A stretch of 64,000 nt of DNA from Candidatus Kapaibacterium sp. (GTDB taxonomy: Bacteria > Bacteroidota > Ignavibacteria > Kapaibacteriales > UBA4661): assembly GCA_036847245.1 (NCBI GenBank), contig DAIUAL010000001.1:4037-68036 (forward strand). Direction: 5' to 3'. The position numbers and the translations under genes are program-made. How positions within the stretch are numbered: position 1 is the stretch's first letter; every line of letters begins with the position of its first letter. Shown in pieces: positions 21,832 to 60,325 of the stretch. The notes below the pieces were generated by a model. That model did no database searches. It saw only the letters and a program-made list of their open reading frames with translations, and was not told the DNA's origin.

Positions 21832-24800
21832 TTATGCGGCGATGTTTTTCGCTCGTGCTTTGCGAATGCCATCTTCGACAGCTGTACGAGGAATAGCAAC
21901 ATCGAACCCTGTTCGTACCACTGTATTTGTGGTATCCAAGCGTGTTAGCACCTGACGGAAAGTTTGCTCTGCTTCTTCCCACCGACCAAGATAGAGTAGC
22001 GCATAAGCACGTAAATGCCGAGCATAGTTTTGTTCAGGAACAAATGTCAATGATAAATCTGCAAAGTGGAGTGATTCCTCATACTTGCGTTGATTGCCTA
22101 CAAGATTTGCTAAAGAAGCCGCTGCATTTGCTGCTAAGTGCTTCGGAAGATTACCGATCTGTAAAGCAAAGAGCAGTGCTTGTTCAGCTTGATCGAAGAC
22201 ATGCATGAAATTCAGCGTTAAGCCGAGTTGAAGCCATGCGTAGGCATTCTCCGGTTCTTCTTTAACATGCTGAAGCAAGAGTCGATAATTACGATCCATT
22301 TTTTGTTTCATGATGGTCATGTCTTGATCATAACCAAGATGTTCGATCATAATATCTGAATCAGCAATACCACCCCCCGCCTCAAGAATACTGGTGCTGA
22401 TTTGCTCATGGACACGTCCTATGAATTTGACCTTAGGATAGCCATAGTTACGAAAGAGACGCGGGTATGCACCAACATGATGTTCAGTATCCATGTCATT
22501 TTGGCGATGTTTACTTTTGATCATACATAAGAATGCTCCAATCTTCTCATCCGCCTCTTCAACAATAGTACGAAGACCTGCTCCTTGCTCCGGTATCAAC
22601 CGCTCATCGGCATCGAGATAGAGTATCCACTTACCGGTACAGTGTTCGAGCGAGTTATTACGCGCCGATGCAAAATCATTCGTCCATGCACGATGATAAA
22701 TTTTTGCGCCAAACTCTTGAGCAATAGTAAGAGTGCGGTCAGTCGAACCTGTATCAGTGATAATGATTTCATCAACAATCCCACGCACGCTCTCTAAACA
22801 GCCCGGTAGAAAATGTTCTTCATTTTTCACAATCATGCTGAGTGAAATTAATGGAGGTTGCGCATGTTCTGATATACTTGACTGAGGAGTCAAACGAATA
22901 GAAAAAGCCGATGCAAAAGTATGAAGATGTGTACGGAATGTTGCCAGTTCTTGTGTAGCAGACTGTGCGGGCAAAAGACGGACTAAGGTTTGCACGATAT
23001 GTTGTGCTTGTGGAATACGTTCGTGCCAAATCGTCGGGCGGTGTGCATCTAGTGCTTGCATATAATTCATGAGCAGTACTAAGCGTTCGCCTGCTGCCGC
23101 GTAGTGCCCCAGCATATACGAGGCAAGAACATCATACCATAATGCTTCGCGTTGATTCGGGAAATATGCTAAAGATTGTCGAGCAACATGCAGCAAGCGT
23201 GTGTAATCAGTTTGTGCAAGTAGGTGTCGGGCATAAATATTTAAGACGACTGCACATTTTTGTGGTGTTGCTTTGGGGTGTGTCAGCAGTTTGCTGAGAG
23301 CATTCAGCATCTCATCATTCGAGAGATTTTCTCCAAAGGTGAGTATATGCAGAACATATTGAAAAGCACCTTCATCATTTGTTGCGCCTTGGCGCATCAA
23401 TTCAGCTTCGAGGAGGGCTGTGTAACGACGAAATTTTTCACCGGTCGGCAATGTTGAATAGTGATAAAAAACGATAGAAGGATCGAAGAGTATTTTTAAG
23501 CCCAAGCGCGTAATGCTTGCTGTTACTTGCTCGTGGATAATGCCTTCATACTGAATAGCGGGGTGTCGGCGAAAAAGACGAAGAATTTCTGTCTGTGCAT
23601 GAGCATCCGACTCTTTGCTGGTAGGTGTGTGACGAATCGAAGAAATATATCCACCAATGTCGGTAGGAGCATTGCTAATGAGTGAACGAATGTGTGTGCC
23701 AATTTCCGTATTGAACCATTCATCGGAGTCAAGCATTAATACCCATGAACCGGAACAGTGTTGCAGAGCATGATTACGAGCTTGGCTATAATCATTTCGC
23801 CAAATCGTATGGACAATCTGTATGGGGGGGATATGTCCGGATTGTTCATGATGACCTTGTTCGCGAAGAGTACGGACAACATTGAGTAATTGAGCATCAT
23901 CGTGCGAAGTACGATTGACAGCATTATGACTGATAATAATTTCATCGCAGCACGAAGCAAGTGAAGATAAAGCACGCAGAAGATATGGCGTATTGCTTTC
24001 TGTAAGAGAGCCGACAATGATTGCGCCGGAGAGTAATATTGTGCGAGAAGAATTGTCATGGTCCTGTGCTGATCCTTGAGTAGTGAATGCCTGTAATGCT
24101 TGTTCAGCTTGAGCAAGAAACTGCGGTAGATCAGTACGTTGCGGTTGAAGGTGAATTGCTTGCTTAAGTAGTGCTACAGCATCGGCAGGTCGTTGGAGCC
24201 GTAAAGCAATATTAGCTTCACCAACAATGCAAGCAATATCATTGGGAGCATGTTTACGACCTTCGTGAAAACAGAGAAGTGCACGATGCCATTCTTGCAA
24301 GCCTGTATAACATTGTCCCATCTTAAAATAAACTTGTTCAGGAACAACATGGTACTCACTCTCGAATCCTGAGGTCGGTTCAGCTAATGTTCGATGTAAG
24401 TCTTCAAAGATTGACAGTGCTGAACGAAAATCAGATTCAGCCAAGAGAACATCGCCCGCGATCAATGATGCTAGTGTCTGTCGTGGCTTTCTGCGTAAAG
24501 ATTCACGAGCAATACGCAAACTCAAATCGAGTTGTTTGGTTTGATACAATGCTAACGCATAAAAATTGAGTGCTTCGATGACTAAATGTTCAGCGAGCTT
24601 TGGCGTAGATATATGGTGCATATGATCGGTTGCCGGTAGATGCATCGCACGCAAGATATTGTCAAGAGCCATGTGGAAATCGTCAAGTGCTTCTGTATGG
24701 CGACCAAGTGCAAGCAGTGTTTTTGCTCGTTGAAAAAGAGCATAGCGGTTATCAGGTGTTGTCTGGAGTGTCGTATTGAGCATAGCGAGATTACGCTCTT

Positions 24801-25368
24801 GTTTCTCACGCATAGCAGTTGGAGAAAGATTATATCCCAAATGCGTGAAGACAATAGTCGAAGGTTGGATGAGGAGACCTGCTTGTTGAATGGCATCGGT
24901 AATTTGTTCATGAATGATACCCTGCCAACGGATGCGATCATCACGCCGAAAGATTCGTGTTGCTTGCGCAGTAAAAACATCACTGCCACCATTAGTCCGA
25001 GCAGAGTGTGAGCGCAAATGAACAAGTATGCCACCAACTTCTTGCGGAGCAGTACGCAAGATATCAGCACATGTTGAGGCATTTTCAAGTCGTTCGTCTG
25101 CGTCAATACTGAGTATCCATGGTGCTTGTGCGAATTCGAGACAAACATTGCGTGCTTGAGCAAAATCATTCTGCCATGTAGACTGGATGACGTGACAACC
25201 AAGCGATTCAGCTAATGGTTGTGTGCCATCAGTTGATCCCGTATCAACAACAATGAATTCAACGGGAAATGCTTCAGCAAGTGGTCGTACTGAAGCGATA
25301 CAATCCGCAAGCATGTAAACTTCATTTTTAGTAATCAGACAGACAGAGAGAAAAGGAGTCGAATTCAT
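21832..25368 (-). CDS. giant tripartite glycosyltransferase: three tandem [GT2-like domain - conserved linker - TPR] modules in one 1178-aa polypeptide
   Basis: GT2 blocks appear three times. Module 1: VCLITKNE…VVDTGSTDGT…WQNDFAQARN…WILSIDADERL. Module 2 (degenerate): …IIISHNAVN…WRNDYSQARN…WVLMLDSDEWF. Module 3: IVKNEE…ITDTGSTDRT…WTNDFASARN…WILYLDADERL. Each is followed by an I.x.G.IHEQ linker and TPR-like helical repeats. Start set at ATG 25368. Confidence 0.8.
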   Translation of the reverse strand: MNSTPFLSVCLITKNEVYMLADCIASVRPLAEAFPVEFIVVDTGSTDGTQPLAESLGCHVIQSTWQNDFAQARNVCLEFAQAPWILSIDADERLENASTCADILRTAPQEVGGILVHLRSHSARTNGGSDVFTAQATRIFRRDDRIRWQGIIHEQITDAIQQAGLLIQPSTIVFTHLGYNLSPTAMREKQERNLAMLNTTLQTTPDNRYALFQRAKTLLALGRHTEALDDFHMALDNILRAMHLPATDHMHHISTPKLAEHLVIEALNFYALALYQTKQLDLSLRIARESLRRKPRQTLASLIAGDVLLAESDFRSALSIFEDLHRTLAEPTSGFESEYHVVPEQVYFKMGQCYTGLQEWHRALLCFHEGRKHAPNDIACIVGEANIALRLQRPADAVALLKQAIHLQPQRTDLPQFLAQAEQALQAFTTQGSAQDHDNSSRTILLSGAIIVGSLTESNTPYLLRALSSLASCCDEIIISHNAVNRTSHDDAQLLNVVRTLREQGHHEQSGHIPPIQIVHTIWRNDYSQARNHALQHCSGSWVLMLDSDEWFNTEIGTHIRSLISNAPTDIGGYISSIRHTPTSKESDAHAQTEILRLFRRHPAIQYEGIIHEQVTASITRLGLKILFDPSIVFYHYSTLPTGEKFRRYTALLEAELMRQGATNDEGAFQYVLHILTFGENLSNDEMLNALSKLLTHPKATPQKCAVVLNIYARHLLAQTDYTRLLHVARQSLAYFPNQREALWYDVLASYMLGHYAAAGERLVLLMNYMQALDAHRPTIWHERIPQAQHIVQTLVRLLPAQSATQELATFRTHLHTFASAFSIRLTPQSSISEHAQPPLISLSMIVKNEEHFLPGCLESVRGIVDEIIITDTGSTDRTLTIAQEFGAKIYHRAWTNDFASARNNSLEHCTGKWILYLDADERLIPEQGAGLRTIVEEADEKIGAFLCMIKSKHRQNDMDTEHHVGAYPRLFRNYGYPKVKFIGRVHEQISTSILEAGGGIADSDIMIEHLGYDQDMTIMKQKMDRNYRLLLQHVKEEPENAYAWLQLGLTLNFMHVFDQAEQALLFALQIGNLPKHLAANAAASLANLVGNQRKYEESLHFADLSLTFVPEQNYARHLRAYALLYLGRWEEAEQTFRQVLTRLDTTNTVVRTGFDVAIPRTAVEDGIRKARAKNIAA

Positions 25369-25469
25369 AAGAGAACAACAGCTACACAAAAAGAATACGA
25401 TTCAGAAGAATGCTGATAGACACAGGGCATGTGTTTATGTACAGACTTTACAAGTTAGGTTGTTGGTTG

Positions 25470-27785
25470 CTAGTGCATACCAATAGGGGTAAGAAAAAAT
25501 GTCTGCATGACGCCTTTGCCTTTAACCTCAATAGGTTGACGGGATTCGACTACAATATCTAAAGGCATACCAATTTGCTCAATAAGTGTACAACGGTATG
25601 TATTTGGTGCAATTTCTTCCACACCCGGTGAATTGAGTAGTACTTGCATGAAACGCTCGGATACATGGATGCGTCCTTCTGCACCGTGAGATTCCATACG
25701 CGACGCGGTATTCACCGAATCACCCCATAAATCGTAAGCAAATTTATGCTTACCAATAACGCCTGCCACACAAGGACCACAGTGTATTCCGATGCGAAGA
25801 TTGACATTGGTAGCAGTGATTTCCCGAATGGTATTCAACGAACGCAGCATGCTGGCGGCAAAAAATGTTATCCGCACGGCATGAGCATCTGTAACCTCGG
25901 GAATACCACCGGCAATCATGTAGCAATCTCCAATTGTTTTGATTTTTTCTAATTGATACAGCAGCGAGGCATCATCAAATTCGCTGAACATCCAATTAAG
26001 AAGTTGCACAAGTTCGCTGGCAGAAGTACGTGCAGAAAGCTTCGTAAATCCAACCATATCTGCAAAGAGTACTGATACATTGTCATAGCTGTCGGCAATG
26101 AGTTCACTTCCTAATTTAAAACGCTGACCAATTGAACGTGGGAGAATGTTGCTCAAGAGTTTTTCGGATTGTTCTTTCTGTTCTTCAATTAAATGTTTCT
26201 GCTCTAAAATTTCTGCATTCTGAAGTTGAATTTCTGAGTTCTGTGCTTGTGTCTCTTCGAGAAGATCAGCGATGCGTTGTTGCGCTTGTGCTGACGCAAG
26301 TACAGAAGCAATATTATCAGCGAGGGCTCCAAAAAGATCAAGATCTTGTTGAGTAAATGACTCCATTGAGCCAAACTCTGCAACGGCTAAACAAGTATCT
26401 TGAAAGATGAATGGTACAGCACAATAGTGCTGTGCTTGCAGTGTGCCAAGGGCACTGGCAACACCGTGATGAGCTAATGATTGTAAAGTATAGTTTTCTG
26501 TTTGCGGTGATGTTGCAGAAACAGATTGATGATGCCGGACAGGTTCGGTAATGCGACTGTTTTGTATGTCAGCTTGGATGATAGAACGATGCTCGTAGCT
26601 ACTCCCGATAATGCCTTCACCAGTACAAAATGTCTGGCGAATAGAACTTGGGTCAGGACAACTATATGTTGCATTAAGTTCAAGATATACTTGATTGTTG
26701 ACAGTACGAACTTTTCGCAGATACAATGATGCCGTGATGCTGCTTGTTAGCTCAGCAAGCATACGGAGGATATCGGTTGTAAGTGTGTCAAGATGGTTAG
26801 CATTACGTGCGAGTGAGGCAATACGATAGCGAAGATCGTCATAATACTTCTGCGTTTCGATTGCTTCCATTGAAGTATTCATAAGTGCAGCAAGTGTAGC
26901 AAGTTCATCATTTTTCTTTTTGATAAACTGTAGCTTCTTCTTGCGCTCTGACGACGATGATTGAAATGCTTGTGTAATGGTGCGAAAGGAGAAACGTATT
27001 CTACGGAGAATAACAATGGTCGAAGCGATAAGAAATGTCAATAGAATAGTCGTGCCAACCACCGCGGTAATATTTTTTATACGATCAAGTTCTTGCTCGT
27101 GGAGCATGACTGTATCTGCACCACGATGAACCAGAGCATGAAGTTCACTACTTCGTAGAGACAACTCTCGGCAATACTCAGAGAGTCGCTGTGCTTCAAG
27201 CCTATATTCCGCTTCCCCAAGCAACTCATCTTCATCAAGGATCTTTCTGAGGGTGAATTGGATATCATTTCTGATAATGATTATAGACTTCGCAACCGCT
27301 ATTTCATGAGGTTCCGTTAAGGCAAAGAATGTTTTTTGCCATATAGTCTCAGACTCATTCATTCCCTGCTCAATTTGCATGCGTAGTTGTTTAATACCAC
27401 TTTGAAAGGAATCTTGAGTACTGCTACTAGAAGGGGTATCAGAAGACTTCTTATATTCGATCAGTAGGTTAGGTAGGGCAGTTGTATACCACATCTGTAG
27501 GCGGTAGAGACCATTCATGGACTGAATGCGATGCATGTACATATCCTGCATGGAGGCCATGGTCTGCTTTTTTAAGTAAAGAACTGTACCGCCCAATATT
27601 CCTACAAAAACGGCACAAATAATCATAAGCCGGGTAATCTGCTGAGCAATCCATGATTGCTGTTTGGCGGAGCGCGAGGCACCTTGTGCAGATTGGGGAG
27701 TGGGTATAGTAGATGATTGAGCAGTAATCTTCTTTTTCAATGACAGATGAAGATCTTGCCAAGAATCTCGATAGGAATTACTCAT
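25470..27785 (-). CDS. membrane-anchored class III adenylate/guanylate cyclase with GAF domain
   Basis: Two TM segments, coiled coil and a GAF-like region (…TGEGIIGSS…). C-terminal CYC domain (…VLFADMVGFTKLS…IKTIGDCYMIAGG…RIGIHCGPCVAGVIG…WGDSVNTASRME). Confidence 0.85.
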   Translation of the reverse strand: MSNSYRDSWQDLHLSLKKKITAQSSTIPTPQSAQGASRSAKQQSWIAQQITRLMIICAVFVGILGGTVLYLKKQTMASMQDMYMHRIQSMNGLYRLQMWYTTALPNLLIEYKKSSDTPSSSSTQDSFQSGIKQLRMQIEQGMNESETIWQKTFFALTEPHEIAVAKSIIIIRNDIQFTLRKILDEDELLGEAEYRLEAQRLSEYCRELSLRSSELHALVHRGADTVMLHEQELDRIKNITAVVGTTILLTFLIASTIVILRRIRFSFRTITQAFQSSSSERKKKLQFIKKKNDELATLAALMNTSMEAIETQKYYDDLRYRIASLARNANHLDTLTTDILRMLAELTSSITASLYLRKVRTVNNQVYLELNATYSCPDPSSIRQTFCTGEGIIGSSYEHRSIIQADIQNSRITEPVRHHQSVSATSPQTENYTLQSLAHHGVASALGTLQAQHYCAVPFIFQDTCLAVAEFGSMESFTQQDLDLFGALADNIASVLASAQAQQRIADLLEETQAQNSEIQLQNAEILEQKHLIEEQKEQSEKLLSNILPRSIGQRFKLGSELIADSYDNVSVLFADMVGFTKLSARTSASELVQLLNWMFSEFDDASLLYQLEKIKTIGDCYMIAGGIPEVTDAHAVRITFFAASMLRSLNTIREITATNVNLRIGIHCGPCVAGVIGKHKFAYDLWGDSVNTASRMESHGAEGRIHVSERFMQVLLNSPGVEEIAPNTYRCTLIEQIGMPLDIVVESRQPIEVKGKGVMQTFFLTPIGMH

Positions 27786-29710
27786 AACATTGCCCCGGAA
27801 GTGAGTGACGCTGTTATGGTACTATCTGCATGTTGTAGTGAATGGGTGGCATGATCTGACTGTTCAGATTGCCTCATGCTGAGTTGAGAGGAGTCCAAGA
27901 TATGGTTGTGTCGATAAGTTAATAGTGCCAGTGCGATACTTTCACCGATAATTGATGCTAATGTTTGTTGCTGATGATTTATGGAATGAAGACAAGCGCA
28001 TTCAATAACGGCAAGAACTTCTTTTTTATAGAGGCAGGGAATTGCCATCATGTAGTGTGGTGCTGTACGCCCAGCCGCCGATACGACAAAAGTAGGGCTG
28101 CCAGATAATGATGAAGTACTATTCTCAGCATTATCGGGAGTCGATTCTCCCAAGGACATAATGACAATTGTACCATTCCGCACAGATTGTCCGCAAATAC
28201 CTTCACCTGTGCGAAAACGTACAAGTGGGTGTTGGTGAGAAACAGCAAACCCTCCTATAAACTCAAACAGATCTTTATGTGCAACTTGGTCGTATGGATG
28301 GGTAGAAGAGGCAACAAAATGATTCTGATTGTTGTGAGCAATATCACAGCGAGTGTACAGACATACAACAGAAGAGTCAAGATATTTGGCAATAAAGCTC
28401 GAAATATTGAGAGATAGTTCGTGCAGAGAGGTACTTTCCTGAATAATACGGGCAGCAGAAGACTGACCTTCCTTCAGCCATAACACTTGTTGTTCTGCAA
28501 TACGCAATGTTTCAATTTCATTACGTTGCTGTTCCATCGCACGAATAGTTTTTGCTTGCTTGCGCGCATTTCGAACCAAGTAAAAAAAACTCAGAGCAAC
28601 AAAAACAGCAATGATGACAATAATTGATCGAGTTAAAACTTCTTGTCGTTGACTAGAGAGAGCGAGCTTGTCAGCAGATGCTTTGTGCTCCCACTCATTC
28701 TCAAGATGAGTAGCTTCTGTTTCAAACTGAATTTTACGATGAGTGATCGTTATAATGAGCCGAGAGTAGTAATTGCTGTATTTATAAGCGGAGTCATATT
28801 GTTTGAGCGATGCATAAATATTTCGCAAAAGTTCTACGGCACTTTCTTCATCCGGCTCGTTTGAAAGTTTTTTTGCACGCGCCAATGCTTGTTGAGCCAA
28901 TGAAATTGCGTCTTTTGCTTTGCCTAATGCAAAGAGAATTTCCGCCTTTTCTTGGTATGCATTGTTTTTTTCATACGTTGATCGATTAGTTTCTGCCAAA
29001 TAAATGGCAGAATCAATCATAAGTGTAGCCGGTTTTAACTGCCCCATGGTTTTGTAAAATCGTGCCAAATAAACATACGCCGTGGTGATATTGGCAGTAT
29101 CTTTAATCGAGTGATGTGATCGCAAGAATAAGCAACGTTGATAGTTAATGTTTGCCTGAGTATAATTATCCAATTCTTTATACAAGTCACCGAGGCGTAA
29201 TGCCGCATATGCCATGCCGATGGTATCGTTTTGTTCGGTGAACATTTGCTGACTTTCCGACATATAGGAGAGAGCTTCACCGAATTTTTTTTTATACACT
29301 AGCATTTCACCGATATTCAGCTTGCAATAGGCGAACTCGCGCGGGGTCTGCGCACTTATTCCTAACGATTCAATTTTTTTGAAAACATCCAAACCACGAT
29401 CATAGTCCTTGATATTGCGAAAAATGATGCCGATATAGTTTGCCGGCTCAATGAATCGTTGGGGTAGTCGAAAATTTGTAGCTAACTCCATCGCTTCTCT
29501 GCCATAGCGAACTGCGGCATTAATGTCATTCTTACGATAGAGCCATGCTAAACGCGTCAGTGGAGCAATACGAGAAGTATCATTGTAGGTAAGCAAGAGA
29601 GACTTTAAACTATCCGCTTCAGAGATTTGTGCACGAAGACGACAAGAAGAGAATAGGAGACCAATGCCAAGCAGAAGACCTATGCCAATATATTTGGTGA
29701 TTCTACACAT
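27782..29710 (-). CDS. TPR-repeat / TM / GAF sensor protein without output domain
   Basis: Signal/anchor (MCRITKYIGIGLLLGIGLLFSSC), extracytoplasmic TPR repeats, a TM helix (IIVIIAVFVALSFFYLV), then coiled coil plus GAF-like (…TGEGICGQS…). Stop overlaps the cyclase start codon (ATGA, 27782..27785). Alternative start at 29764. Confidence 0.7.
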   Translation of the reverse strand: MCRITKYIGIGLLLGIGLLFSSCRLRAQISEADSLKSLLLTYNDTSRIAPLTRLAWLYRKNDINAAVRYGREAMELATNFRLPQRFIEPANYIGIIFRNIKDYDRGLDVFKKIESLGISAQTPREFAYCKLNIGEMLVYKKKFGEALSYMSESQQMFTEQNDTIGMAYAALRLGDLYKELDNYTQANINYQRCLFLRSHHSIKDTANITTAYVYLARFYKTMGQLKPATLMIDSAIYLAETNRSTYEKNNAYQEKAEILFALGKAKDAISLAQQALARAKKLSNEPDEESAVELLRNIYASLKQYDSAYKYSNYYSRLIITITHRKIQFETEATHLENEWEHKASADKLALSSQRQEVLTRSIIVIIAVFVALSFFYLVRNARKQAKTIRAMEQQRNEIETLRIAEQQVLWLKEGQSSAARIIQESTSLHELSLNISSFIAKYLDSSVVCLYTRCDIAHNNQNHFVASSTHPYDQVAHKDLFEFIGGFAVSHQHPLVRFRTGEGICGQSVRNGTIVIMSLGESTPDNAENSTSSLSGSPTFVVSAAGRTAPHYMMAIPCLYKKEVLAVIECACLHSINHQQQTLASIIGESIALALLTYRHNHILDSSQLSMRQSEQSDHATHSLQHADSTITASLTSGAML

Positions 29711-29997
29711 ACATGGTAGGAGAAAATAAAGATGAGTCTCTGAGCAAGAGTTTCTGATATACAATATGCTTGATGTGTACGATGATTCTATAATCTAAGT
29801 AACCGTAAGCATTTGCTTCTCATTTTAAAAATTGGCAGAACGTAATCGCCAACTGAAATTTAAGTAAATTGGATTGTGTTCTTTGCAAAAAAGTAGAGAC
29901 AAAATCGAGGAAACACACAATATTCCTTGCTTTCTTTTATGCAAAGTAGCAGAACACGATATTTCTATTTTTTCTTTTCATTTTTTAGAGATACACT

Positions 29998-36742: not shown

Positions 36743-39700
36743 TCATGAAGAGGAAAGGGGTGGCTTTGCTGTTGGTAATTCCACAATGAATGTTGCACCA
36801 TGACCTAAAGTAGATTCGCACCATACTCGACCACTCATGTGCTCAACCATTTTTTTTACAATGCTCAATCCCAATCCTGTACTATGTTCTCCGGCAGTTG
36901 GTTTTGGTGTTAAGCGCGCAAATTTCCCAAAGAGTTTTTTGAGATCATCGTTGGACAAACCCGGACCTTGATCTTGTACTTCGATGCGGACACAGCCGAT
37001 TTTTTCGGTTATACGAATAAATACACTACGTGACAGTGGTGAATACTTGATAGCATTCGAAATCAAATTATCAATGATTTGCTCTGTTGCATGTTGATCG
37101 GCAAAGACGCATTGTGAACCAAGAACTTGCAATTCAAGATGAATGTTTTTATCCTTGGCGGGTTGTCGATAAAAAGCAATGATATGCTCGACGAGGGGTA
37201 GCATGTCAAATTCTGTAAAATTGGTGGTAAAACCACCTCTTTCTAAACGATTGACATCTAAAAGATTAACCACAAGATTTAGCATACGTGCTGATGATTG
37301 CAAGATAGTTCGGAGTAATTCCGTTCGCATGTCGGTATCCATATGTTCTTCCGATTCAAGCATAAACTCGGCGGTTCCCTTTACCACCGTGATGGGATTC
37401 TTTAAATCATGCGATACAATACCCAAAAACTCATTCTTTTCGTTATTCAGTTCTAAGAGCCGTTCATTTTGCCTTTGCAGTTCTTCGGCTGTTTCGAGTA
37501 AGGCATGTGTTTTTTCGTCAACTAACTGCTGAAGTTCCTGTTTACGGTGCTCTAATCGTCGAACATTAATTTTCACAATACCCCACATTAGGACACCCGC
37601 TCCTGTACTAATGATAACCGATACCCACCACCGCTGATACCATGCTGGAGCAACACTGAAAGTAAAGACTAATGGTTCGCTCCAACGATATGCACCGTCT
37701 TGAATTGCACGCATTTCCAAGCGATATACGCCTTCGGGCAGGTCGAGAATGGTGAACTTTGACTCGACTTGTGATGGTGACCACGAAGTATCTGTTTGAT
37801 TGTTGAGCAAACGATATTGATAGTACATAGTGCTATTGCCAAATGCAATAGAAAGCACCTGCACTTGTATGCTAGAATGATATGGCAAAACAAATTCTTT
37901 AGTATTGGTATGCCTCGCACCCGGAGCAAACAAACCCGCACTTTCGAGTGCCGATAATGATTGCTTCGCATCACCTACCCTGATAGACGTGAAAAAAGGT
38001 GTTGCAGTTATTTTTTGTATAGCACTGGAAATAGGAATAAAAGCCATTCCTCCGACCGTACCAACTATGATACTATTTGTATGGCGGTCATAGAGCATTG
38101 CACGCAACACCGTCTCATTAGCAGGCAAGCCATTGAATTCATTCAAAAAGAAATATGAGCCATTGGGATAATACACCAACACGCCAAAACTCGTTCCAAT
38201 CCACAGTACACCTGACGAGTCACTCGTAATGGACTTAAAGTTCCTTACTTTCTCACCGGTTGAGGCATAAATGATAGGGATAGAATCGATACCCCGAGCC
38301 GTATGGTGGAATAGTCCTTGATTGGTACACAGCCATATATCATTCTGTTCTTTTGCCCATAGGGCATTAACTTCGAATCCGGGATGTATTGTGCCATCCG
38401 ATAGTGCAATACTGATGTCTTCAAACCGATCCCTTTGCTCCGAATACCGAAAAAGATATCCTACATTTCCCTGACTACGTCCAGCACAAAACAACGTACC
38501 ATCAGTTGTTTCGGAAAAAAACCGAATTACAGACATAAGTCCACGTCTTTCGTCATAGTGTTGTGCATTAGCATGCGCTAAAGAGGATGCCTGCTCGTCA
38601 ATACGCAGAACGCCGGCTGCCAGCTCCGCACATCCCCATAGCCTAGAGTGAGAATCTGCAAAAAGATGAAATATCGTCGGATTGCGTACCGTACCGGAAA
38701 GTGTAGGTATAGATTCATGCTTGCTCAATGTCTTAACATGGTATTTTGCTTCAGCATATTTCTGTACTCGAAAAAGCTGTCCTTCGATGGTACTATACCA
38801 TACATAGTGCTCTGTGGTGGCGACTGAGAGAATATCACCACCGATTCGCGTAGAAGAACTAACATTCTCTATTTGTGGAGAATAGTCACTATGCGCTGTA
38901 ATCTTATACATGCTACTGCCATTTGATGTGTACAAGACACCTCGCCCACTGCTTGCAATCGCTTGAATATAGGTGGAAGCATCGGCTTCAACATCAACAG
39001 TCCGAATATGAATAGGATTTAACAGTACGAGTCCCTTGTCTGAGCTTGCCCATATTTCATGATTTGGTGTACTAAGAATGGCATTAATGGTTTTGAATGG
39101 TATTTGACAGGATTGAGGTGAAAAAAACTTGGTTGAAAGAGTCGGTAACAATGCAGTGAACAGACCGTCATTCCATGTGCCAATATATAGTCGACCGTCA
39201 GTGGCTTTGTGCAAAGAAGAAATTCCACCATGATTCCACCATGGAGTACAGCCCAGTACATTTCCCTGTGCATCGATACGCATCTCGGTAATGCCTTGAG
39301 AATGACCTATCAGCAGAACGCCTTGACGTATAGGTAGGAGCGCAGAAACTGCCTCAAAACGTGTGCCGCGAGGTAGCTCTAATGCAATAAATGTATCTTG
39401 TACACGATTATACCAAAAGCAGTAACCGCTCTGTGAGACGACAATAAAACTGCCAAAACCATCGGGTACAAAAGAAAACGATCGAAGGAAGCTATTCGTC
39501 TGACAATAAGACGGAAAGGAGTAACGGCGCAGTGTTTTGTTCTGATAGCGCGAAATAGACCTTGACTGTGCAATCCACAGTGCCCCTTGTTCATCTTGAT
39601 AGAGATCTTTGGGGTAATTCACTGTTGTGTCGTTCTCTGTGCGATCGCCGAGCACTAAGGGTGTAAAACGTACAGAGTCTATCGCTACTGCAATCTCTGC

Positions 39701-40009
39701 AACACCTAAATCATGTGAGACGAGCAAACGATTGTCGGGCGTACGATAGAGATATTTGATGTACTGTGAGGGTAATTGTATCCGAAAATTTTGAAAATGT
39801 TCTCCATCAAACCTTGATAAGCCTTCATCGGTACCAACCCATAAATAGTTATAACTGTCTTGAGCAAGTACTTTTGTAGAGTTTGTCGGTAAGCCCTCGC
39901 GTGTTTTATAGAGAGAAGTTTTAAAGAGAGGAGCTGGCTGTGCAATTGCGCAGTACGAAACGATCCATATCAGAATGCTACTAATAACTATTCGCCGAAG
40001 AGCATACAT
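36743..40009 (-). CDS. sensor histidine kinase with periplasmic two-component-regulator-propeller and Y_Y_Y domains (no receiver/AraC output)
   Basis: Beta-propeller repeats, Y_Y_Y segment before the TM (…FTFSVAPAWYQRWWVSVIISTGAGVLMWGIV), HisKA (…VSHDLKNPI…) and HATPase (…DQGPGLS…GLGLSIV…). Start at ATG 40009 (signal MYALRRIVISSILIWIVSYCAIAQ). Confidence 0.85.
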   Translation of the reverse strand: MYALRRIVISSILIWIVSYCAIAQPAPLFKTSLYKTREGLPTNSTKVLAQDSYNYLWVGTDEGLSRFDGEHFQNFRIQLPSQYIKYLYRTPDNRLLVSHDLGVAEIAVAIDSVRFTPLVLGDRTENDTTVNYPKDLYQDEQGALWIAQSRSISRYQNKTLRRYSFPSYCQTNSFLRSFSFVPDGFGSFIVVSQSGYCFWYNRVQDTFIALELPRGTRFEAVSALLPIRQGVLLIGHSQGITEMRIDAQGNVLGCTPWWNHGGISSLHKATDGRLYIGTWNDGLFTALLPTLSTKFFSPQSCQIPFKTINAILSTPNHEIWASSDKGLVLLNPIHIRTVDVEADASTYIQAIASSGRGVLYTSNGSSMYKITAHSDYSPQIENVSSSTRIGGDILSVATTEHYVWYSTIEGQLFRVQKYAEAKYHVKTLSKHESIPTLSGTVRNPTIFHLFADSHSRLWGCAELAAGVLRIDEQASSLAHANAQHYDERRGLMSVIRFFSETTDGTLFCAGRSQGNVGYLFRYSEQRDRFEDISIALSDGTIHPGFEVNALWAKEQNDIWLCTNQGLFHHTARGIDSIPIIYASTGEKVRNFKSITSDSSGVLWIGTSFGVLVYYPNGSYFFLNEFNGLPANETVLRAMLYDRHTNSIIVGTVGGMAFIPISSAIQKITATPFFTSIRVGDAKQSLSALESAGLFAPGARHTNTKEFVLPYHSSIQVQVLSIAFGNSTMYYQYRLLNNQTDTSWSPSQVESKFTILDLPEGVYRLEMRAIQDGAYRWSEPLVFTFSVAPAWYQRWWVSVIISTGAGVLMWGIVKINVRRLEHRKQELQQLVDEKTHALLETAEELQRQNERLLELNNEKNEFLGIVSHDLKNPITVVKGTAEFMLESEEHMDTDMRTELLRTILQSSARMLNLVVNLLDVNRLERGGFTTNFTEFDMLPLVEHIIAFYRQPAKDKNIHLELQVLGSQCVFADQHATEQIIDNLISNAIKYSPLSRSVFIRITEKIGCVRIEVQDQGPGLSNDDLKKLFGKFARLTPKPTAGEHSTGLGLSIVKKMVEHMSGRVWCESTLGHGATFIVELPTAKPPLSSS

Positions 40010-40154
40010 TACATAGTGCATCATACAGCTGATACACCAATATCGGGTACTCATAATCTGAAGGTGAAAGCTATGGAAGAAATTCATACCACAGAGAGTA
40101 ACTTATTAGGAAGATTGATCTAAAACATAGCACACAGCACACTGTCAAACTCTA

Positions 40155-40726: not shown

Positions 40727-43204
40727 TTACTCTCCACAGCCAATTGGTTGACCGGGTGGCGGCAACAGTGGCTTTGGTACAACAGTTGTTTTAGGACTAC
40801 GCACGAAATCACCGATCTGGCTTATGGCAAGCATATACGCAGCTTTAGTCGATTCATCTTTGACTGTTTTACGTTGTATATCGAGCCACGTTCTAAGATT
40901 ATCTAATTGCAATAAACTAATGGCGCGAGTTTGTGCTGTTGCTTCTTCGTCTTGCACAAGGCGCATGAGCGCATGAAGAACTGTTGTGTTGATGGTGCGT
41001 TGTACTTCTGCTAAATACGGATTTATGGGTAAAGAGCTTCTCCAAGTTGCTGAGAGAGTGCTGTTAATGATTTCAGCAAGTGAAGGCAAGCGTGGATCGC
41101 GAGCATGATATTCAATCAAACGTGCAGAGCGTTCGGGATTGAAGAGAAACATTGTTGTGTGATGCACTGCGGCTTCAACCGCCGAGAGTGCGTCAAAAGG
41201 AAGTCCTGTCCGATTTTTGAAGGACTCACGTGTACGTTCAAATCCCGAAGCATGAGGGGGAATAAGCTTGAGCAATTGTTCCGGAAGTGCAAGGGCATTG
41301 ACATTGATGGTTGCAAGCAATGCCTGTAGAGCACTACGCTGCTGATCGGCGGGAATCATAGCCGTAGGTTGTTGTCCGTCGCCACGGAGAGCAAAACGAT
41401 AATCTAGACCACCGATAGATTTACTTACTGCTTCTACCTGATAGCGATGAAGGAAATACATCGGCACCAATGTTTCATCGAGCGAGGACATGGGCTGTCC
41501 TTGAGCAATATTGTTGGCACTGAATGAACGTAAGACTTTTTCTCGTAGTCTCATCAAGCGATTTAATTCTTCGACTGCGTTCTTGCCATTATCCCATAGA
41601 TGTGCCGAAGGATGCGCACCGCCCACCGGACGAGCATCATCATCGGTGATATAATACATGCCAAGTGCGTGAGCAGAATCAAGCAAACGTCGTAAGCTCT
41701 GCTGTTCATTCCCGGAGAATTCTCCGTAGCCAAACTGAATAGAAACTTTATCCCATTCCCCAATGCCGGTAGCATAAGCATTCGCAAGCGTAATAGTGCC
41801 ATTCGGCATGGTATCAATGTGAGGATGCGGATAATCCATGACGGACGTGCGACCTTTCGCAAGTGCACTTGCCGCAAAGTTGTGTGATAATCCCAGAGTA
41901 TGCCCGATTTCATGAGCTGAAAGTTGGCGCAAGCGTGCAAGAGCCATGGCTTTGAGTGAATCAGAAACATTCTTGCCTTCTTCGTAAGCGGCAATCAAAC
42001 CGCTGGCAATGAGATAATCTTGACGCACACGCAAAGATCCGAGAGTAACATGACCCTTGAGAATTTCCCCTGTTCGTTGATCGGTTACGCTTGATCCATA
42101 CTACCATCCCCGTGTTGATCGATGCACCCACTTCACGACATTATATCGTACATCCATGGGGTCAACTGTATCGGGAAGAATCTTTACTTGAAAAGCATTG
42201 ACAAAACCTGCTGCCTCAAATGCTTGGTTCCACCATGTTGCGCCTTCATAGAGTGCTGTACGAATCGGCTCCGGTGCTGCATGATCAATGTAATACACGA
42301 GTGGTTCCCGTGCCTCACTTCGTGCTAAACCGGGATTCTTTTTTTGTAAGCGGTGTCGTGTAATAAAGCGTTGTACAATCGGCTTATCAAAGGGCGTAGC
42401 ATAGTCCATATAGCTTATCGGAAAATATCCAGCTCTTGGATCATATTCACGCATGGTGTACGGATACTCTTCTTTTAGATCAGGTAACTCGATAAATGAA
42501 TGATGCTGACGTACGCTGACATTGGTCGGTGTTGGTGTGACTTCACGAATAAATTGCCCGGTGGGTTCACCAACAAGAGTAATTAACGCTTCAAATTCAG
42601 TGTTCTTCGGAAAACTTTTTGTACGTGGCATAAACATTGCCGACTGACCGGGTGCAAGAGCGTATGAACCCTGACCTGTAGCACGTAATCTACCTGCAAC
42701 ATCATGAGCATCACGTATAAAAAAACTGCTTGCCTCAACAAGTATTGTTTGCTCGTCTTCAGTATCGATCGCAAAACCAAAAAGGACAGAGCGCGCAAAT
42801 GATTCAGCCACAGCATCCTGTTCGCTCTTGTTGTTCGTTACAGCACGATCCCATAAGTTGGGCTGTACCAAGAGTAATTTTGGACCATGACGCTCCAAAC
42901 GTACGACACGCTCGCCGCCAAGTTGACCGCGATCAAGTCCGATATCATTTGAGCCAACGCCTTGTGGTAAAGATACTGAGTAGAGAAAATCTTTTTCTAG
43001 GCGTTTCTTGTCAATTGCCAACCAAATTTTGTCGCTTTTGCTGTCATGATAAAAAGTGAAAAAACCTGAGAATTTTTGCAAACCCGCCACACGTTGTTCA
43101 ATCGGTGATCCTACAGTTTGCGAGGGAGTACTTTGTGCGGACAGTGATTGTATCCGTATTGAGAAGAGTACAATATAGGTGAAGATGAGAAGGAATCGAT
43201 TCAT
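40727..43204 (-). pseudogene. secreted zinc-dependent metalloprotease (HExxH; Bacteroidota DUF5117/DUF4953-type), interrupted by one in-frame TAG at 42101..42103
   Basis: ORFs 42101..43204 and 40727..42034 are in the same frame. The translation reads …[42 protein letters not shown]… with no other stop. The HEIGHTLGLSHNF zinc motif is in the downstream half and the signal peptide in the upstream half. Confidence 0.6.
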
Positions 43205-53507: not shown

Positions 53508-55832
53508 TTGTTGAGTACGTTGAAGGAAATGGCTATGTCTTTGTCTTTGCGCTCGGTTATTTCAAACATTACCCGGCAGGGAATTCAGGCAGATGCTACG
53601 GAAGCCGATATCCGTAGGCATCAGGCAGGCATATTGATAATACTAATGGCAATGATACTGATTGCTACAGATATAATCACATTACATTTTCTACATGTCA
53701 ACACCACATTGTCAATCAAGGTAACAAATGTTTGTGCCTATGTTGTTGCTCTATTTCTATATCGACGAGGTCATACATTCATTGGTGCCTATATTGCTAT
53801 TGGTATAGCTAACTTAGCAATCTATGTCGCATCCATTGAGGACGGAAAAAATTCACTGACAGTCGTGTGCTTTCTAACGACAACTATTTCACCGTTTATA
53901 TTCTTTTCGTTACGCCAGTGGCGGTGGATTGCCTTTTCAGTGTTTTGGTCATGGTTTTTCGCGGTCTTAACCCTCGTATACAACTATCAGTTACCACCCG
54001 CACTTGCTTGGTTAGGCATTATTACCAGTACAAAACCAACGGATGTAGTATCAATTGTCACTCTGAGTATAACTATTTTTTTTGTTGCTGGGACAACTCT
54101 TTTTCTTGTATTCCTCAACGATCATTCCGAACAAGTTGCATGGCAACAAGTACATGCCGCCAAAAATAATGAAAGACGTCTTACGTCTGTGTTGTCTTCC
54201 GTAACAGATCCGATATGGATTACCGATATCAATCTAAAAGTTGTTATGGCAAATGCTGCATTTCATACAGTGTATAAGGCACGTTATGGAAGAGAATATG
54301 ACAAGGAAAGTATCGATGAAATTCCCAATTTACCCGAAGAAGAAGTACTGTGGAAACCACGGTATGCCGATGCTATCAAAGGTAAGACGGAAGAGTTTTA
54401 CAATTCCTTTGTCGGTGTTGATGGACAACGAGTTTGGGAAGCGGTAACTTTGACACCACTGAAATTAAATGATTCTATTTCCGGTGTTGTAGGAATTGCA
54501 CGAAACATTACAGCAGTAAAAGAAGCAGATGCAAGTATTTCTGCTACAGCGATGCAATTGCAAGCATTGGTTGCATCTCTTGATGACATTGTTTGCCAAG
54601 TTAATCGTACAGGATTTGTTCTTGCCGTTTGGGCATCGCATCATTCGCCATTGTCAGAGTTTGCAAAGAGTTTACAAGGTAAACATATTCGCCTTCTTGC
54701 TGACGATGCAGGTGCAGCAATGATGAATGCAATTAATAATACGTTTATCACACAGCGTCCGCATTCTATTGAGTATTATCTCCAACGAGTTCGTCGTTGG
54801 TATCAAGCCAAACTTTCGTACGTTACAGAGAATAACTCTGTAACAATTCTTCTGGCGGATGTTTCAGATCGCAAAGCTAATGACGAGCACATTCAAGGAT
54901 TAAATAATCAATTGCAAGAACTGAATGCTTTATACTCAGAAGCAAATCGAAATCTTGCAGACAATAATGCACAGCTCGAACAGCGCGTCAGTGAGCGTAC
55001 TGCTGAATTGCAACGTATGACCGAACAATTACAAGAGGAAAATGGTATCCGTAAGCATACCGAAGAAAGGTTGTCACGCGCTCTTCAACGCGAACAGAGC
55101 TTTAGTGACATGAAGTCACGGTTTGTCACGATGTTGTCTCACCAATTCCGCACACCACTGACTTTGGTTCAAAATGGGCTCGATATTATTACTTCCTTAC
55201 TGATCCGAAATACGAGTATTTCTCATGAACAGGTTGCTAAACATCTCTCATCGATGATGGGGGCTACTGACCAGATTGTTGAGCTACTGGAGCGTGTAGC
55301 AACTTTATCGGATATGCAGATCAATCTTCTCGAAGAAAAGCCACACCAATTTGTACTTGAGCCACTTTTACGCACTATTATACATGAGTGCGCTATGCAG
55401 GATGAAAACAATGTTGTTAAGCCATTGGAGCGTATTCAAGTAAGGTTGCAGGGAGACATTCCTTCCCTGTATACAATTGAAACAGCACTACACAGAGCCT
55501 TGATGGAAGTAGTGAAGAATGCGTTGCACTACAGCGACGAGAATTCGCCTATTGTAATTTCAGCTGAAGTCGACAGAATACATTCTCATCGTGTACATAT
55601 TACCGTTACCAATCAAGGCAAACAGCTATCCGAAGAAGAATATCGGATGATTTTTGAAAACTTTTACCGCACAGGTCTTGCACAAACCGTTGGGAGTCAG
55701 CGTGGTTTAGGAATTGGTTTAGGAATTGCGCAGTTTTGCATGCAAACACTTAATGGCATTATCGTGTGTACGAATTCTGAATCAAATTTGACTCATTTTC
55801 ATTTGGAATTTCCTGCTGTTCTTCCGCAATAA
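53508..55832 (+). CDS. sensor histidine kinase, multi-TM N-domain + 2 PAS + coiled coil + HisKA/HATPase (paralog 1 of 3)
   Basis: About 6-7 N-terminal TM helices. PAS-like (…DPIWITDINLKVVMANAAF…, …LDDIVCQVNRTGFV…). S-helix ERTAELQRMTEQLQEEN. H-box MLSHQFRTPL. N/G boxes (…NALHYS…, GLGIGLGIA). Confidence 0.8.
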   Translation: MLSTLKEMAMSLSLRSVISNITRQGIQADATEADIRRHQAGILIILMAMILIATDIITLHFLHVNTTLSIKVTNVCAYVVALFLYRRGHTFIGAYIAIGIANLAIYVASIEDGKNSLTVVCFLTTTISPFIFFSLRQWRWIAFSVFWSWFFAVLTLVYNYQLPPALAWLGIITSTKPTDVVSIVTLSITIFFVAGTTLFLVFLNDHSEQVAWQQVHAAKNNERRLTSVLSSVTDPIWITDINLKVVMANAAFHTVYKARYGREYDKESIDEIPNLPEEEVLWKPRYADAIKGKTEEFYNSFVGVDGQRVWEAVTLTPLKLNDSISGVVGIARNITAVKEADASISATAMQLQALVASLDDIVCQVNRTGFVLAVWASHHSPLSEFAKSLQGKHIRLLADDAGAAMMNAINNTFITQRPHSIEYYLQRVRRWYQAKLSYVTENNSVTILLADVSDRKANDEHIQGLNNQLQELNALYSEANRNLADNNAQLEQRVSERTAELQRMTEQLQEENGIRKHTEERLSRALQREQSFSDMKSRFVTMLSHQFRTPLTLVQNGLDIITSLLIRNTSISHEQVAKHLSSMMGATDQIVELLERVATLSDMQINLLEEKPHQFVLEPLLRTIIHECAMQDENNVVKPLERIQVRLQGDIPSLYTIETALHRALMEVVKNALHYSDENSPIVISAEVDRIHSHRVHITVTNQGKQLSEEEYRMIFENFYRTGLAQTVGSQRGLGIGLGIAQFCMQTLNGIIVCTNSESNLTHFHLEFPAVLPQ

Positions 55833-55899
55833 GAGCAACCACAAATAAGAATACCCGCTGCTAAGTAGTATATTTTCTTCTCTCTTTTTAATCGTTGTC

Positions 55900-58203: not shown

Positions 58204-58312
58204 TAGAAGAACTTATTATTGAAAGCCTTCCATAGTCAATACAATCATATCTATGATGAGTGGGTAGGTGTCTCAGTTGAGATCCTACTCTCGATTGTGT
58301 TGATACATTTAT

Positions 58313-60325
58313 ATGATTTCATTGATCTCCACTGCCGTGCAGAGAACACTTTTTACATATCTCCAAAAGCTCTTTCCTGACCGTGGTAATGCCACTACTG
58401 CATATAAAGTTGGTAGTACCGTTTTTGATCTATCCGCTCATCATGAATCTGCTCGGCATATCGCGGCAATGGTACTTCTTTTGCCTACAATGCTGTGCTA
58501 TTTATTTACGGTAGTTTTTTATGCTTTAGGACTACCGCGAAGTGGTATGGGCTTTTTTATTGTTGCAATCGGATTTACTTGTTGTACATGGTTTGGGCAC
58601 TATAATCAGCAACGAGCTACCGAAGCTGTTCTCGTGTGGGCAGTAATAGCGGTATTTCTTATGTCGCATATTATTCCGCAAGGTGAGCTTACATATCCTT
58701 ATTATTTCATGATACAATTAGGAGCATTGTTTGTTTATGGTATTCGGCGTTTAAAGGGAGTGATAATTTTTGCATTGCTGCCCATAGTTCTACATACGAT
58801 AGCAATGTTCTACACACTACCGGCATATGGAGCTTATTTCGTGGAGGAAGCACATATACCAATGAATTTTTTGACCTTATCACGTTTTCTCATTGTTACT
58901 TGTGTGCTGTGTTTGGTGATACTTCTTCAGCAAAAAAGTACATTAGAAATAGAAGCAATTGTTGACAAAAGTATTGAAGCAACTCGTATTCATCAGCAAC
59001 AGTTAAACGATATTGTTACTGCTATTCAGGAAGCGATATGGCTTACAGATGCAACGGGCAATATTATTTTAAGCAATCCTTCACTGCAGCAATCGTTGGT
59101 AAATCGTTTTCATATCATGTTTGGTAATCGTTTTGATATGATCGAATATTTTGAGCCGCATGAAAGAGAGCTTTGGCGTGAGCAGTACCAAAAAGTATTT
59201 CGAGGTGAAACAACCTCTTTCACTACCGAATGGCAAGACAAAGTACATAATAGAATGCATTGGTGGGAAATTACGCTTCTACCATTATCTGATCGTGGTT
59301 TGATCTATGGTGCCGTGGGTGTTGGGCGTGAGATAACTGAACAAAAAGAATTTGCCGAGAGGATTCTTGCACTGAATCAAGAGTTGTCGGTTATGACACA
59401 CCGGCTTTCTTCAGCAAATGAAAATCTTGAATCACGTATCGTCGAGCGCACAGCCGATCTCGCTCAACTCGCGAAAGAATTACAACAAGAGAATGTCGAG
59501 CATCGTAAGACAAAAAAAAGTTTGGCTTCGTCTTTAGAGCGCGAAAAACGCTATGGGGATATGAGAATGAAATTAGCTATGATGCTATCGCACCAATTTC
59601 GTACGCCGATGGCCTATATTAAGTCGGCAAGCGATCTCATGGAAGCCTATCTTCGACGTGGTAAAGAGATTGATGAAGCACGCTTGCGAAATTTATTGAA
59701 TTCTATCGATCGCGGTACATCAGAAATGGAAAAACTGATGAATGATATTTCTAATCTTTTAGAAACACAAGCAGAGTTACAGCAAGAACAACCACAACAG
59801 TTCAATCTTGTTTCTGTTGTACGAGAAGCATTACAGCTCCAGATTAGCCCGGGAGACTATCAAGATCCCTTGATTGGACATTCGTTGTTGGTAGATGTTG
59901 ATGAAGATTTGATCGCCTTTACACGGCTTCATGCTTTGCGTACAGCGCTCTTTGAAATTATTCGTAATGCTGTGCAATATTCAGAGAAAGGTTCAACGAT
60001 TAGTATTACTTCTTCATCTGTAAATTCACTCGAAACCAATGAAAAGATATATTCGATAGCCATTCACAATACGGGAAGTCAAATACCAATTGGCGAAGAG
60101 CATAATATCTTTGAGTTTTTCTATCGTGCGGGTCGTGAACATGAGGTCGGAGCATCCCGAAGTTTGGGTATAGGGCTTGGGCTTGCAAAGTATGCAGTGG
60201 AATTATTAGGCGGCTCGGTTATCTGTGTGCGTGGTCTGCTCAACGAAGCAAAGTTTACTATAACATTTCCACAAAAATTGCCGACCAATCTATATGATGT
60301 ACCATCTGTACACATAACAATGTGA
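58313..60325 (+). CDS. sensor histidine kinase, multi-TM + PAS + HisKA/HATPase (paralog 3 of 3)
   Basis: Collinear with paralogs 1-2: …EAIWLTDATGNIILSN…, ERTADLAQLAKELQQEN, MLSHQFRTPM, GIGLGLAKY. Confidence 0.8.
   Translation: MISLISTAVQRTLFTYLQKLFPDRGNATTAYKVGSTVFDLSAHHESARHIAAMVLLLPTMLCYLFTVVFYALGLPRSGMGFFIVAIGFTCCTWFGHYNQQRATEAVLVWAVIAVFLMSHIIPQGELTYPYYFMIQLGALFVYGIRRLKGVIIFALLPIVLHTIAMFYTLPAYGAYFVEEAHIPMNFLTLSRFLIVTCVLCLVILLQQKSTLEIEAIVDKSIEATRIHQQQLNDIVTAIQEAIWLTDATGNIILSNPSLQQSLVNRFHIMFGNRFDMIEYFEPHERELWREQYQKVFRGETTSFTTEWQDKVHNRMHWWEITLLPLSDRGLIYGAVGVGREITEQKEFAERILALNQELSVMTHRLSSANENLESRIVERTADLAQLAKELQQENVEHRKTKKSLASSLEREKRYGDMRMKLAMMLSHQFRTPMAYIKSASDLMEAYLRRGKEIDEARLRNLLNSIDRGTSEMEKLMNDISNLLETQAELQQEQPQQFNLVSVVREALQLQISPGDYQDPLIGHSLLVDVDEDLIAFTRLHALRTALFEIIRNAVQYSEKGSTISITSSSVNSLETNEKIYSIAIHNTGSQIPIGEEHNIFEFFYRAGREHEVGASRSLGIGLGLAKYAVELLGGSVICVRGLLNEAKFTITFPQKLPTNLYDVPSVHITM

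Follow-up and report, generated by a model that had tools for sequence, protein, structure and literature searches.

A GT2–TPR protein of Kapaibacterium with three SunS/GmaR-type modules and a motif-deficient middle copy

Proteins that join a family 2 glycosyltransferase (GT2) domain to tetratricopeptide repeats (TPRs) form a large class of bacterial cytoplasmic glycosyltransferases that is almost unstudied apart from SunS and ThuS and from GmaR. SunS and ThuS (PDB 7MSN, 7MSP and 7MSK; NCBIfam TIGR04195) are glycocin S- and O-glycosyltransferases with a GT2 core of the GT-A fold and a helical, TPR-like domain, one such module per chain; the S-linkage made by the SunS family joins a hexose to a Cys of a peptide, and the glycocin (sun operon) cluster also holds genes for a precursor peptide, an exporter and disulfide-bond formation. 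GmaR of Listeria monocytogenes (GT domain, PDB 22AO) is a cytoplasmic enzyme that acts on protein, being both a flagellin O-GlcNAc transferase and the anti-repressor of MogR (PMC9638930). Its single GT domain of ~180 residues stands directly before a TPR domain that begins at residue 183 and for which flagellin recognition has been proposed, and it carries in addition a C-terminal linker and a MogR-binding anti-repressor domain (PMC9638930). Here we describe a gene on the reverse strand of a 64-kb stretch of Candidatus Kapaibacterium sp. DNA (the window) whose product fuses three modules of this kind, M1, M2 and M3, in a single chain, with a middle module that lacks the donor-side motifs. We found no relevant literature on pseudo-glycosyltransferases or on tandem GT2–TPR proteins.

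The gene lies in an uninterrupted open reading frame (ORF) of 1185 codons counted from a TTG (21832..25389, reverse strand). The NCBI gene call on the identical contig starts at an ATG at 25368 and gives a protein of 1178 amino acids (aa), in exact agreement with the coordinates in an earlier note on this DNA; residue numbers refer to this 1178-aa form, and the window coordinates of all parts were verified by translation. An identical protein (P0001) is encoded in NCBI assembly GCA_002405405.1, contig DHLT01000051.1. The earlier note had proposed three collinear GT2 plus helical-repeat modules in one polypeptide, and this was borne out when the protein was cut into thirds (M1, M2 and M3) that were compared pairwise by BLASTP: M1 matched M3 at E=7e-43 (36% identity, 218 aa), M1 matched M2 at E=2e-24 (30% identity, 243 aa) and M2 matched M3 at E=1e-22 (26% identity, 318 aa). 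The similarity from module to module is far above chance, and the triplication is real.

The assignment to GT2 also held against a profile hidden Markov model. Pfam PF00535 matched the whole protein in three stretches (E=3e-49) and the separate thirds at 62.8 (M1), 33.6 (M2) and 77.3 bits (M3), each above the gathering score of 23.3. Profile score, a GT-A Rossmann-like α/β core and a DxD metal/diphosphate motif at aligned positions all place the gene in this family. M1 and M3 have the nucleotide-binding motifs of the N-terminal part, namely N-E behind strand 1 and the leading Asp of DxGSxD, which are missing from M2. KNE and DTGSTD, which the earlier note had described as kept in modules 1 and 3, are intact in both as part of a full motif set (KNE, DTGSTD, ARN, DADE, HEQ and HxGY). 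The motifs that it quoted are present, although its search patterns were slightly too strict, as M3 reads FASARN where they had F.QARN, and VKFIGRVHEQ where they had I..G.IHEQ. The parts of the gene map as follows.

21832..25368, reverse strand: whole gene, ATG start, 1178 codons plus stop; the TTG at 25389 adds seven codons
24829..25356, reverse strand: M1 GT-A core, residues 5-180, matched by the GT2 profile from profile position 1 (62.8 bits); orthologous to module 1 of two-module proteins
25321-25332, reverse strand: M1 motif after strand 1, TKNE
25228-25245, reverse strand: M1 first Asp block, DTGSTD
25093-25104, reverse strand: M1 DxD, DADE
24904-24912, reverse strand: M1 HEQ
24055..24828, reverse strand: M1 helical repeat region, residues 181-438, ~12 helices in the predicted structure
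23449..24033, reverse strand: M2 degenerate GT-A core, residues 446-640
23995-24012, reverse strand: M2 site after strand 1, GSLTES in place of VKNEE
23911-23928, reverse strand: M2 first Asp site, HNAVNR in place of DTGSTD, aligned block (II)SHNAVN
23719-23730, reverse strand: M2 DxD, DSDE, retained
23527-23535, reverse strand: M2 HEQ, retained
22894..23448, reverse strand: M2 helical region, residues 641-825, ~9 helices, a diverged copy of the M1 and M3 helices
22327..22854, reverse strand: M3 GT-A core, residues 839-1014, GT2 77.3 bits, the most conserved module
22816-22830, reverse strand: M3 motif after strand 1, VKNEE
22738-22755, reverse strand: M3 first Asp block, DTGSTD
22603-22614, reverse strand: M3 DxD, DADE
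22402-22410, reverse strand: M3 HEQ
21835..22326, reverse strand: M3 helical repeat region, residues 1015-1178, ~8 helices

The closest solved relatives by sequence are the GmaR GT domain (E=1.4e-30 to M3, and E=3e-28 against the M2 profile) and SunS and ThuS (1e-19 to 3e-21). For the whole model the best fold matches are SunS and ThuS (Foldseek E=4e-16 to 3e-14, target template-modelling score (TM) 0.52–0.69), with 308–384 columns aligned to 7MSN, 7MSP and 7MSK in a match that spans both core and helices; M2 aligned with the same type of fold, a GT-A core with a C-terminal helical domain, over 235–256 residues. These sequence and fold matches identify each module as a unit of SunS/GmaR type, in which a TPR-like helical domain directly follows a GT2 GT-A core. 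The N-E, D, ARN, DxD and HE motifs of SunS and ThuS align with those of the modules. The window protein differs from both enzymes in the fusion of three modules, in a sequence identity of only ~20% and in the missing donor-side motifs of its middle module, and TIGR04195, the SunS equivalog, is its best NCBIfam model with 176.3 bits over three stretches, far under the 350-bit cut-off. It shares with GmaR the placing of the GT domain directly before the TPR domain. The linker and anti-repressor domain of GmaR have no counterpart here; only its 204-residue GT chain matched at E<=0.001, and no extra domain follows the helices of any module in the predicted structure. The window holds no glycocin precursor, peptidase-containing ABC exporter or thiol-disulfide gene, and no MogR or flagellar genes.

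Other glycosyltransferases resemble the protein in architecture or in principle. The chondroitin polymerase K4CP (PDB 2Z86) also has several GT-A cores per chain, and its likeness is the generic one of the GT-A fold (target TM ~0.25); in polymerases of its kind two unlike GT-A domains take turns in lengthening a polysaccharide. K4CP and the multi-module glycosyltransferases of O-antigen and capsule synthesis build polysaccharides with domains drawn from different GT types, not with three paralogues, and their descriptions include no degenerate copy (PMC11231755, PMC5974469). Such multi-module proteins are standard in O-antigen assembly (PMC11231755), and the TPR domains of capsule polymerases mediate oligomerisation (PMC5974469). 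In OGT, SPY and FlmG, helical repeats pick the protein on which the linked catalytic domain acts, and the N-terminal flagellin-binding domain of FlmG has been shown to select its substrate (PMC7591256). OGT and SPY were among our fold matches by way of their TPRs, but the catalytic domains of all three have GT-B or other folds, lie C-terminal to the TPRs and are not homologous to the GT-A cores described here.

The AlphaFold2 (AF2) model of the full-length protein, computed with 39 orthologues in the alignment, has a mean predicted local distance difference test (pLDDT) score of 89 and runs three times through an identical order of strands and helices, followed each time by 8–12 helices. The GT-A fold of M2 is confident in this model. 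A model of M2 alone is weaker (pLDDT 79) and departs from the full-length one around residues 140–190, and what we say of M2 is kept at the level of the fold. A 19-residue insertion in M2 (residues ~489–507; 23848..23904, reverse strand), which follows the degenerate DTGSTD site and is shared only with a second triple (P0002), lengthens the long helix H488–507 in the full-length model. The N-terminus of the protein opens directly with strand 1 and has no hydrophobic segment, consistent with a cytoplasmic location.

Two assignments of the earlier note change in the light of this model. It had taken an IxxGxIHEQ pattern for a linker between core and helices; HEQ (residues 153–155, 612–614 and 987–989) instead lies between strands of the GT-A core, the next of which ends in HxGY, and it aligns within GmaR residues 7–202 and within SunS. 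The H and E of this motif are invariant across the 39 orthologues. The GT-A common core contains DxD, a G-loop and a C-terminal His (PMC8476585), and by analogy with it the HE pair and the later invariant His are probably part of the catalytic and metal centre. The note had also given TPR helices to all three modules. This stands for M1, whose helical region is TPR by sequence (TPR_2 49.7 and TPR_1 43.3 bits, both above their cut-offs); M3 is weakly so (TPR_12 25.4 and TPR_1 22.5 bits when scanned alone, below the cut-off), and no TPR family was detected in the M2 helical region by a Pfam scan. The three regions are homologous to one another, with an hhalign probability of 99.3% (E=7e-21) between M3 and M1 and of ~92% (E=7e-7) between M2 and the other two, and the alignment has a common A..SL...P.Q motif.

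The absence of KNE and DTGSTD from module 2, which the earlier note had seen in this protein, proved common to all seven orthologous middle modules: none of them has the Asn/Glu that follows strand 1 or the Asp that opens DTGSTD, which GmaR and SunS carry as N-E and D at the aligned positions. The residues now at the DTGSTD site vary among the seven (SHNAVN, SMNAPE, NNGSTD, HTGSSP, HTGSSL, NTGGAP and ITTTLP). M2 also lacks the G-Y of HxGY and the C-terminal RN motif, and its PF00535 match is confined to profile positions 51–117, leaving the N-terminal third unmatched. Retained in the orthologues are W.ND[FY]S.ARN, the GG loop, R.FR, DxDE and HE, the last as HE(Q/S/T) in 7/7 middle modules and as HEQ in 5/7. 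M2 keeps 23–26 of the 37 positions conserved in both active module types and has fixed substitutions of its own, His for Ser, and Tyr for the Asn of the C-terminal RN motif.

Regional conservation, measured as mean identity among four triples, was 0.51, 0.48 and 0.68 for the cores of M1, M2 and M3, respectively, and 0.38, 0.37 and 0.55 for their helices. Because M2 is about as conserved as M1 while the inter-module linker reaches an identity of only 0.17, M2 looks like a maintained pseudo-glycosyltransferase and not a decaying relic. Judged from these alignments, it is most likely a pseudo-enzyme in which the uridine side of the donor site has been lost. Among other relatives, ten have modules that lack the first Asp independently (P0142, P0181, P0162, P0058, P0191, P0211, P0104, P0241, P0135 and P0219), and most of these are multi-module proteins. 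These sequences hint that in this class a single module has degenerated more than once, and the pseudo-module solution may have arisen repeatedly.

We then placed the triple among its relatives. A word-indexed search returned three other triples (P0002, P0003 and P0004, at 64%, 37% and 42% identity) and ~36 two-module proteins of 720–790 aa from metagenome-assembled genomes (MAGs) of Ignavibacteria and Bacteroidota (P0005–P0040). A scan of one genome per species confirmed 568 relatives, and the 80 loci kept from it contain ~21 two-module ORFs, many single-module genes and no three-module gene. The two-module ORFs are the strongest matches among the kept loci and come from Kapaibacteriota, Ignavibacteria and Chlorobiota MAGs (L002–L023, L029 and L067). 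These GT2–TPR proteins of ~760 aa are uncharacterised orthologues of the triple, with a best-segment identity that reaches 50–57%; no motif of the set is missing from either of their cores, and they have no middle module at all. In the 36 doubles module 1 carries SIDADER and GIIHEQ, the M1 signature, and module 2 carries YLDADER and GRVHEQ, the M3 signature, and nearest neighbours in the distance matrix agree with this pairing. On this sequence evidence M1 and M3 are orthologous to the two modules of the doubles.

The origin of M2 is less sharply drawn. Neighbour-joining bootstraps recovered the middle modules as a monophyletic, long-branched clade in 47/60 replicates and placed it as sister to the module-1 type in 32/60 and to the module-3 type in 2/60, so that an origin from the module-1 type is only weakly favoured; a two-residue GY indel is an M3-specific insertion and carries no information on this point. 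An exhaustive HMMER search with M2 against 1.84 billion cluster representatives detected the first 80 residues, which set M2 apart, in no proteins but P0001 and P0121–P0123, and the matches that came next after the M2 orthologues (E ~1e-44) began at query position ~79. The middle module is known from seven proteins in all (P0001–P0004 and P0121–P0123), every one a singleton cluster. The triple is best read as the two-module enzyme of its lineage with one extra copy inserted, once, between the original modules. The earlier note had called a triple fusion unusual. Core counts correct this: in a sample of 260 relatives that is biased towards multi-module proteins, 50 have one core, 158 two, 47 three, four have four and one has five. 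Three modules are not unusual in this family, and it is this particular middle module that is rare.

Single-module GT2–TPR genes also occur in tandem arrays (L058, L074–L076, L078 and L080), with five consecutive copies in a Gemmataceae MAG (L081, 90-7927). We considered such tandem genes, from Melioribacteraceae and other genomes, as unfused orthologues of M1 and M3, which their scores did not support: both members of each pair tested score nearer to the slow-evolving M3 type. At three of the triples (P0003, P0004 and P0121) a free fourth-module gene of ~325–337 aa lies directly upstream of the triple and after rpsU (ribosomal protein S21). Its product is a SunS/GmaR-like core with all motifs intact and a short tail that resembles TPRs, so that these loci line up four modules, a free one and the three of the triple; the window lacks a gene of this kind. 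The free genes lie at these positions.

L083:6985-7971: free fourth-module gene
L084:7067-8041: free fourth-module gene
L085:6911-7924: free fourth-module gene

Together these data point to a soluble cytoplasmic three-module glycosyltransferase of the SunS/GmaR type that probably has two active modules, M1 and M3, and one maintained pseudo-enzyme module, M2. Between them M1 and M3 would represent an ancient enzyme of two modules, both catalytically competent, which occurs widely in Kapaibacteriota, Ignavibacteria and Chlorobiota. From homology we infer that each most likely binds a UDP-sugar and a divalent metal through KNE, DTGSTD, ARN and DADE and most likely passes the sugar on to a side chain in an acceptor protein or peptide, while the helical domains would serve acceptor recognition, the packing of modules against each other, or both. 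M2 would be a lineage-specific third copy, inserted in a single event and with a weak affinity to the module-1 type, that has lost the uridine-binding part and probably does not turn over UDP-sugar. Set between the two active sites, it would be kept by purifying selection to give structure or spacing or to bind a ligand. A protein or peptide acceptor is favoured by the homology to GmaR and SunS, and by analogy it fits helical or binding domains that select substrates.

Several observations weigh against this proposal. The roles given to the motifs come by analogy from general knowledge of GT-A and GT2 enzymes (for example PMC8476585), not from data on this family. M2 keeps most catalytic-centre residues, and we therefore infer its inactivity rather than observe it. 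In one triple (P0003) M1, otherwise an intact module of the active type, has Asn for Asp at the first Asp, which suggests that this position tolerates some change. The whole-chain predicted TM score (pTM) of the AF2 model is only 0.47, too low to fix how the modules are placed relative to one another. The window offers no acceptor candidate, with no flagellin, glycocin precursor or exporter and transporter-partner genes in it. Synteny is not conserved between the window locus and the 80 related loci, whose ORFs have only generic histidine-kinase domains in common with those of the window, and outside the gene itself nothing in the window recurs at the loci of the other triples. Lastly, 3/7 triples (P0003, P0004 and P0121) adjoin GT9, GT4 and GT1 genes and a methyltransferase gene, a neighbourhood more typical of envelope-glycan assembly.

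A more specific role for M2 is possible, and we advance it tentatively. The module would be a repurposed pseudo-glycosyltransferase that keeps the metal/diphosphate and acceptor side of the pocket (ARN, GG, DxDE and HE) and not the uridine side, and it could work as a reader, gripping UDP or an acceptor that already carries its sugar, or could couple the two active sites allosterically. If so, the three-module enzyme would be a machine for processive or ordered two-step protein glycosylation.

An enzyme of envelope-glycan synthesis (lipopolysaccharide, exopolysaccharide or capsule type) is a serious rival, though on balance we think it rather improbable. Here the two active cores would add different sugars one after the other to a lipid-linked or growing glycan, as multi-module polymerases do, and the helical domains would serve oligomerisation or contacts with pathway proteins rather than the binding of a protein acceptor. 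The triples P0003, P0004 and P0121 stand directly after their free fourth-module genes and near a GT2 gene as well as those already named, and both the oligomerising TPR domains of capsule polymerases (PMC5974469) and the routine use of multi-module glycosyltransferases in O-antigen assembly (PMC11231755) fit this role. Against it, the nearest relatives by sequence and by whole-module fold (GmaR, SunS and ThuS) modify proteins or peptides, and K4CP matches at the level of the generic GT-A core. The window, P0002 and the two-module loci have no glycan-synthesis neighbours, and no membrane anchor or transporter partner was seen.

That M2 is itself a working transferase with a remodelled donor site, using another nucleotide or donor or other binding residues and giving the protein three active sites, seems to us unlikely. 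Its confident GT-A fold and the motifs kept in all seven middle modules would suit such an enzyme, as would a rate of evolution no faster than that of M1 and replacements that are fixed within clades rather than scattered as in random decay. Yet both uridine-side motifs are lost in every orthologue, and the residues that replace them differ between orthologues, which argues against a new conserved donor pocket; the loss of HxGY and of the C-terminal RN, and the unmatched N-terminal third of the GT2 profile, point the same way. An artefact, in which MAG mis-assembly or a frameshift merged adjacent paralogous genes, is conceivable given the tandem single-module arrays and is extremely improbable, as seven independent assemblies (NCBI and Logan) encode the same continuous triple with a collinear alignment, the inter-module linkers are short and in frame, and M1 and M3 match fused two-module orthologues in related genome loci.

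The gene is a rare extension of a two-copy enzyme that is itself common and uncharacterised, and it implies no new kind of system. The two-site version is conserved across Kapaibacteriota, Ignavibacteria and Chlorobiota, and a small subclade has gained a third copy that is conserved and motif-deficient. Should M2 prove to function as a pseudo-enzyme, the protein would give a clean natural case in which a glycosyltransferase domain has taken on a non-catalytic role; in other respects the triple is an ordinary domain duplication. Seven triples and many two-module orthologues make a ready comparison set for what the middle module contributes. The value of the locus lies mainly in this natural comparison of enzyme and pseudo-enzyme modules, and in the attention that it draws to a large, uncharacterised family of two-site glycosyltransferases from the Kapaibacteriota/Ignavibacteria group.

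Upstream of the glycosyltransferase gene and on the same strand, an adenylate/guanylate cyclase gene ends 101 nt before its start, and co-transcription of the two is possible. The cyclase gene (771 aa) overlaps by 4 nt the gene of a 660-aa TPR_MalT-like protein that lies upstream of it (25470..29764, reverse strand), an arrangement that is not kept at the loci of the other triples. A scan for promoters and terminators around the glycosyltransferase gene gave counts no higher than those in shuffled sequences. Downstream lie genes for a UPF0102 protein, an NlpC/P60 protein, a FlgD_ig-like protein and a major facilitator superfamily (MFS) transporter, and the remaining genes of the window are of housekeeping and signalling type. 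When the neighbours of 24 two-module loci were clustered, their synteny was clade-local and of housekeeping type (FeoB, a DtxR-like regulator, RuvA and an aminotransferase).

Several other ORFs in the window drew our attention. A 727-aa ORF (61759..63942, reverse strand) matches no Pfam family at E<=1e-5 and resembles, at 22–28% identity, paired sortilin/BNR-like proteins of ~1085 aa with a Por_Secre_tail. In L002, L004 and L013 such a pair immediately precedes the two-module gene; the likeness is probably coincidental, because in the window the 727-aa ORF is 36 kb from the glycosyltransferase gene. At 40727..43204 (reverse strand) two ORFs in the same frame are split by a single in-frame TAG at 42101-42103 (STRGW*YGSSVTDQRTGEIL). 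The first (42101..43204, reverse strand) has DUF5117/DUF5118 and the second (40727..42034, reverse strand) a DUF4953 Met-zincin domain, and the two look like one metalloprotease gene of ~820 aa with an amber interruption, which could reflect a pseudogene, an error in the MAG consensus or read-through. An ORF of 1114 aa (36743..40087, reverse strand) matches histidine kinases of other loci over its C-terminal ~250 residues, and its large N-terminal region showed no similarity to the sequences with which it was compared. Three consecutive histidine-kinase genes, of 774, 767 and 670 aa, occupy 53508..60325 on the forward strand, the third with a PAS domain.

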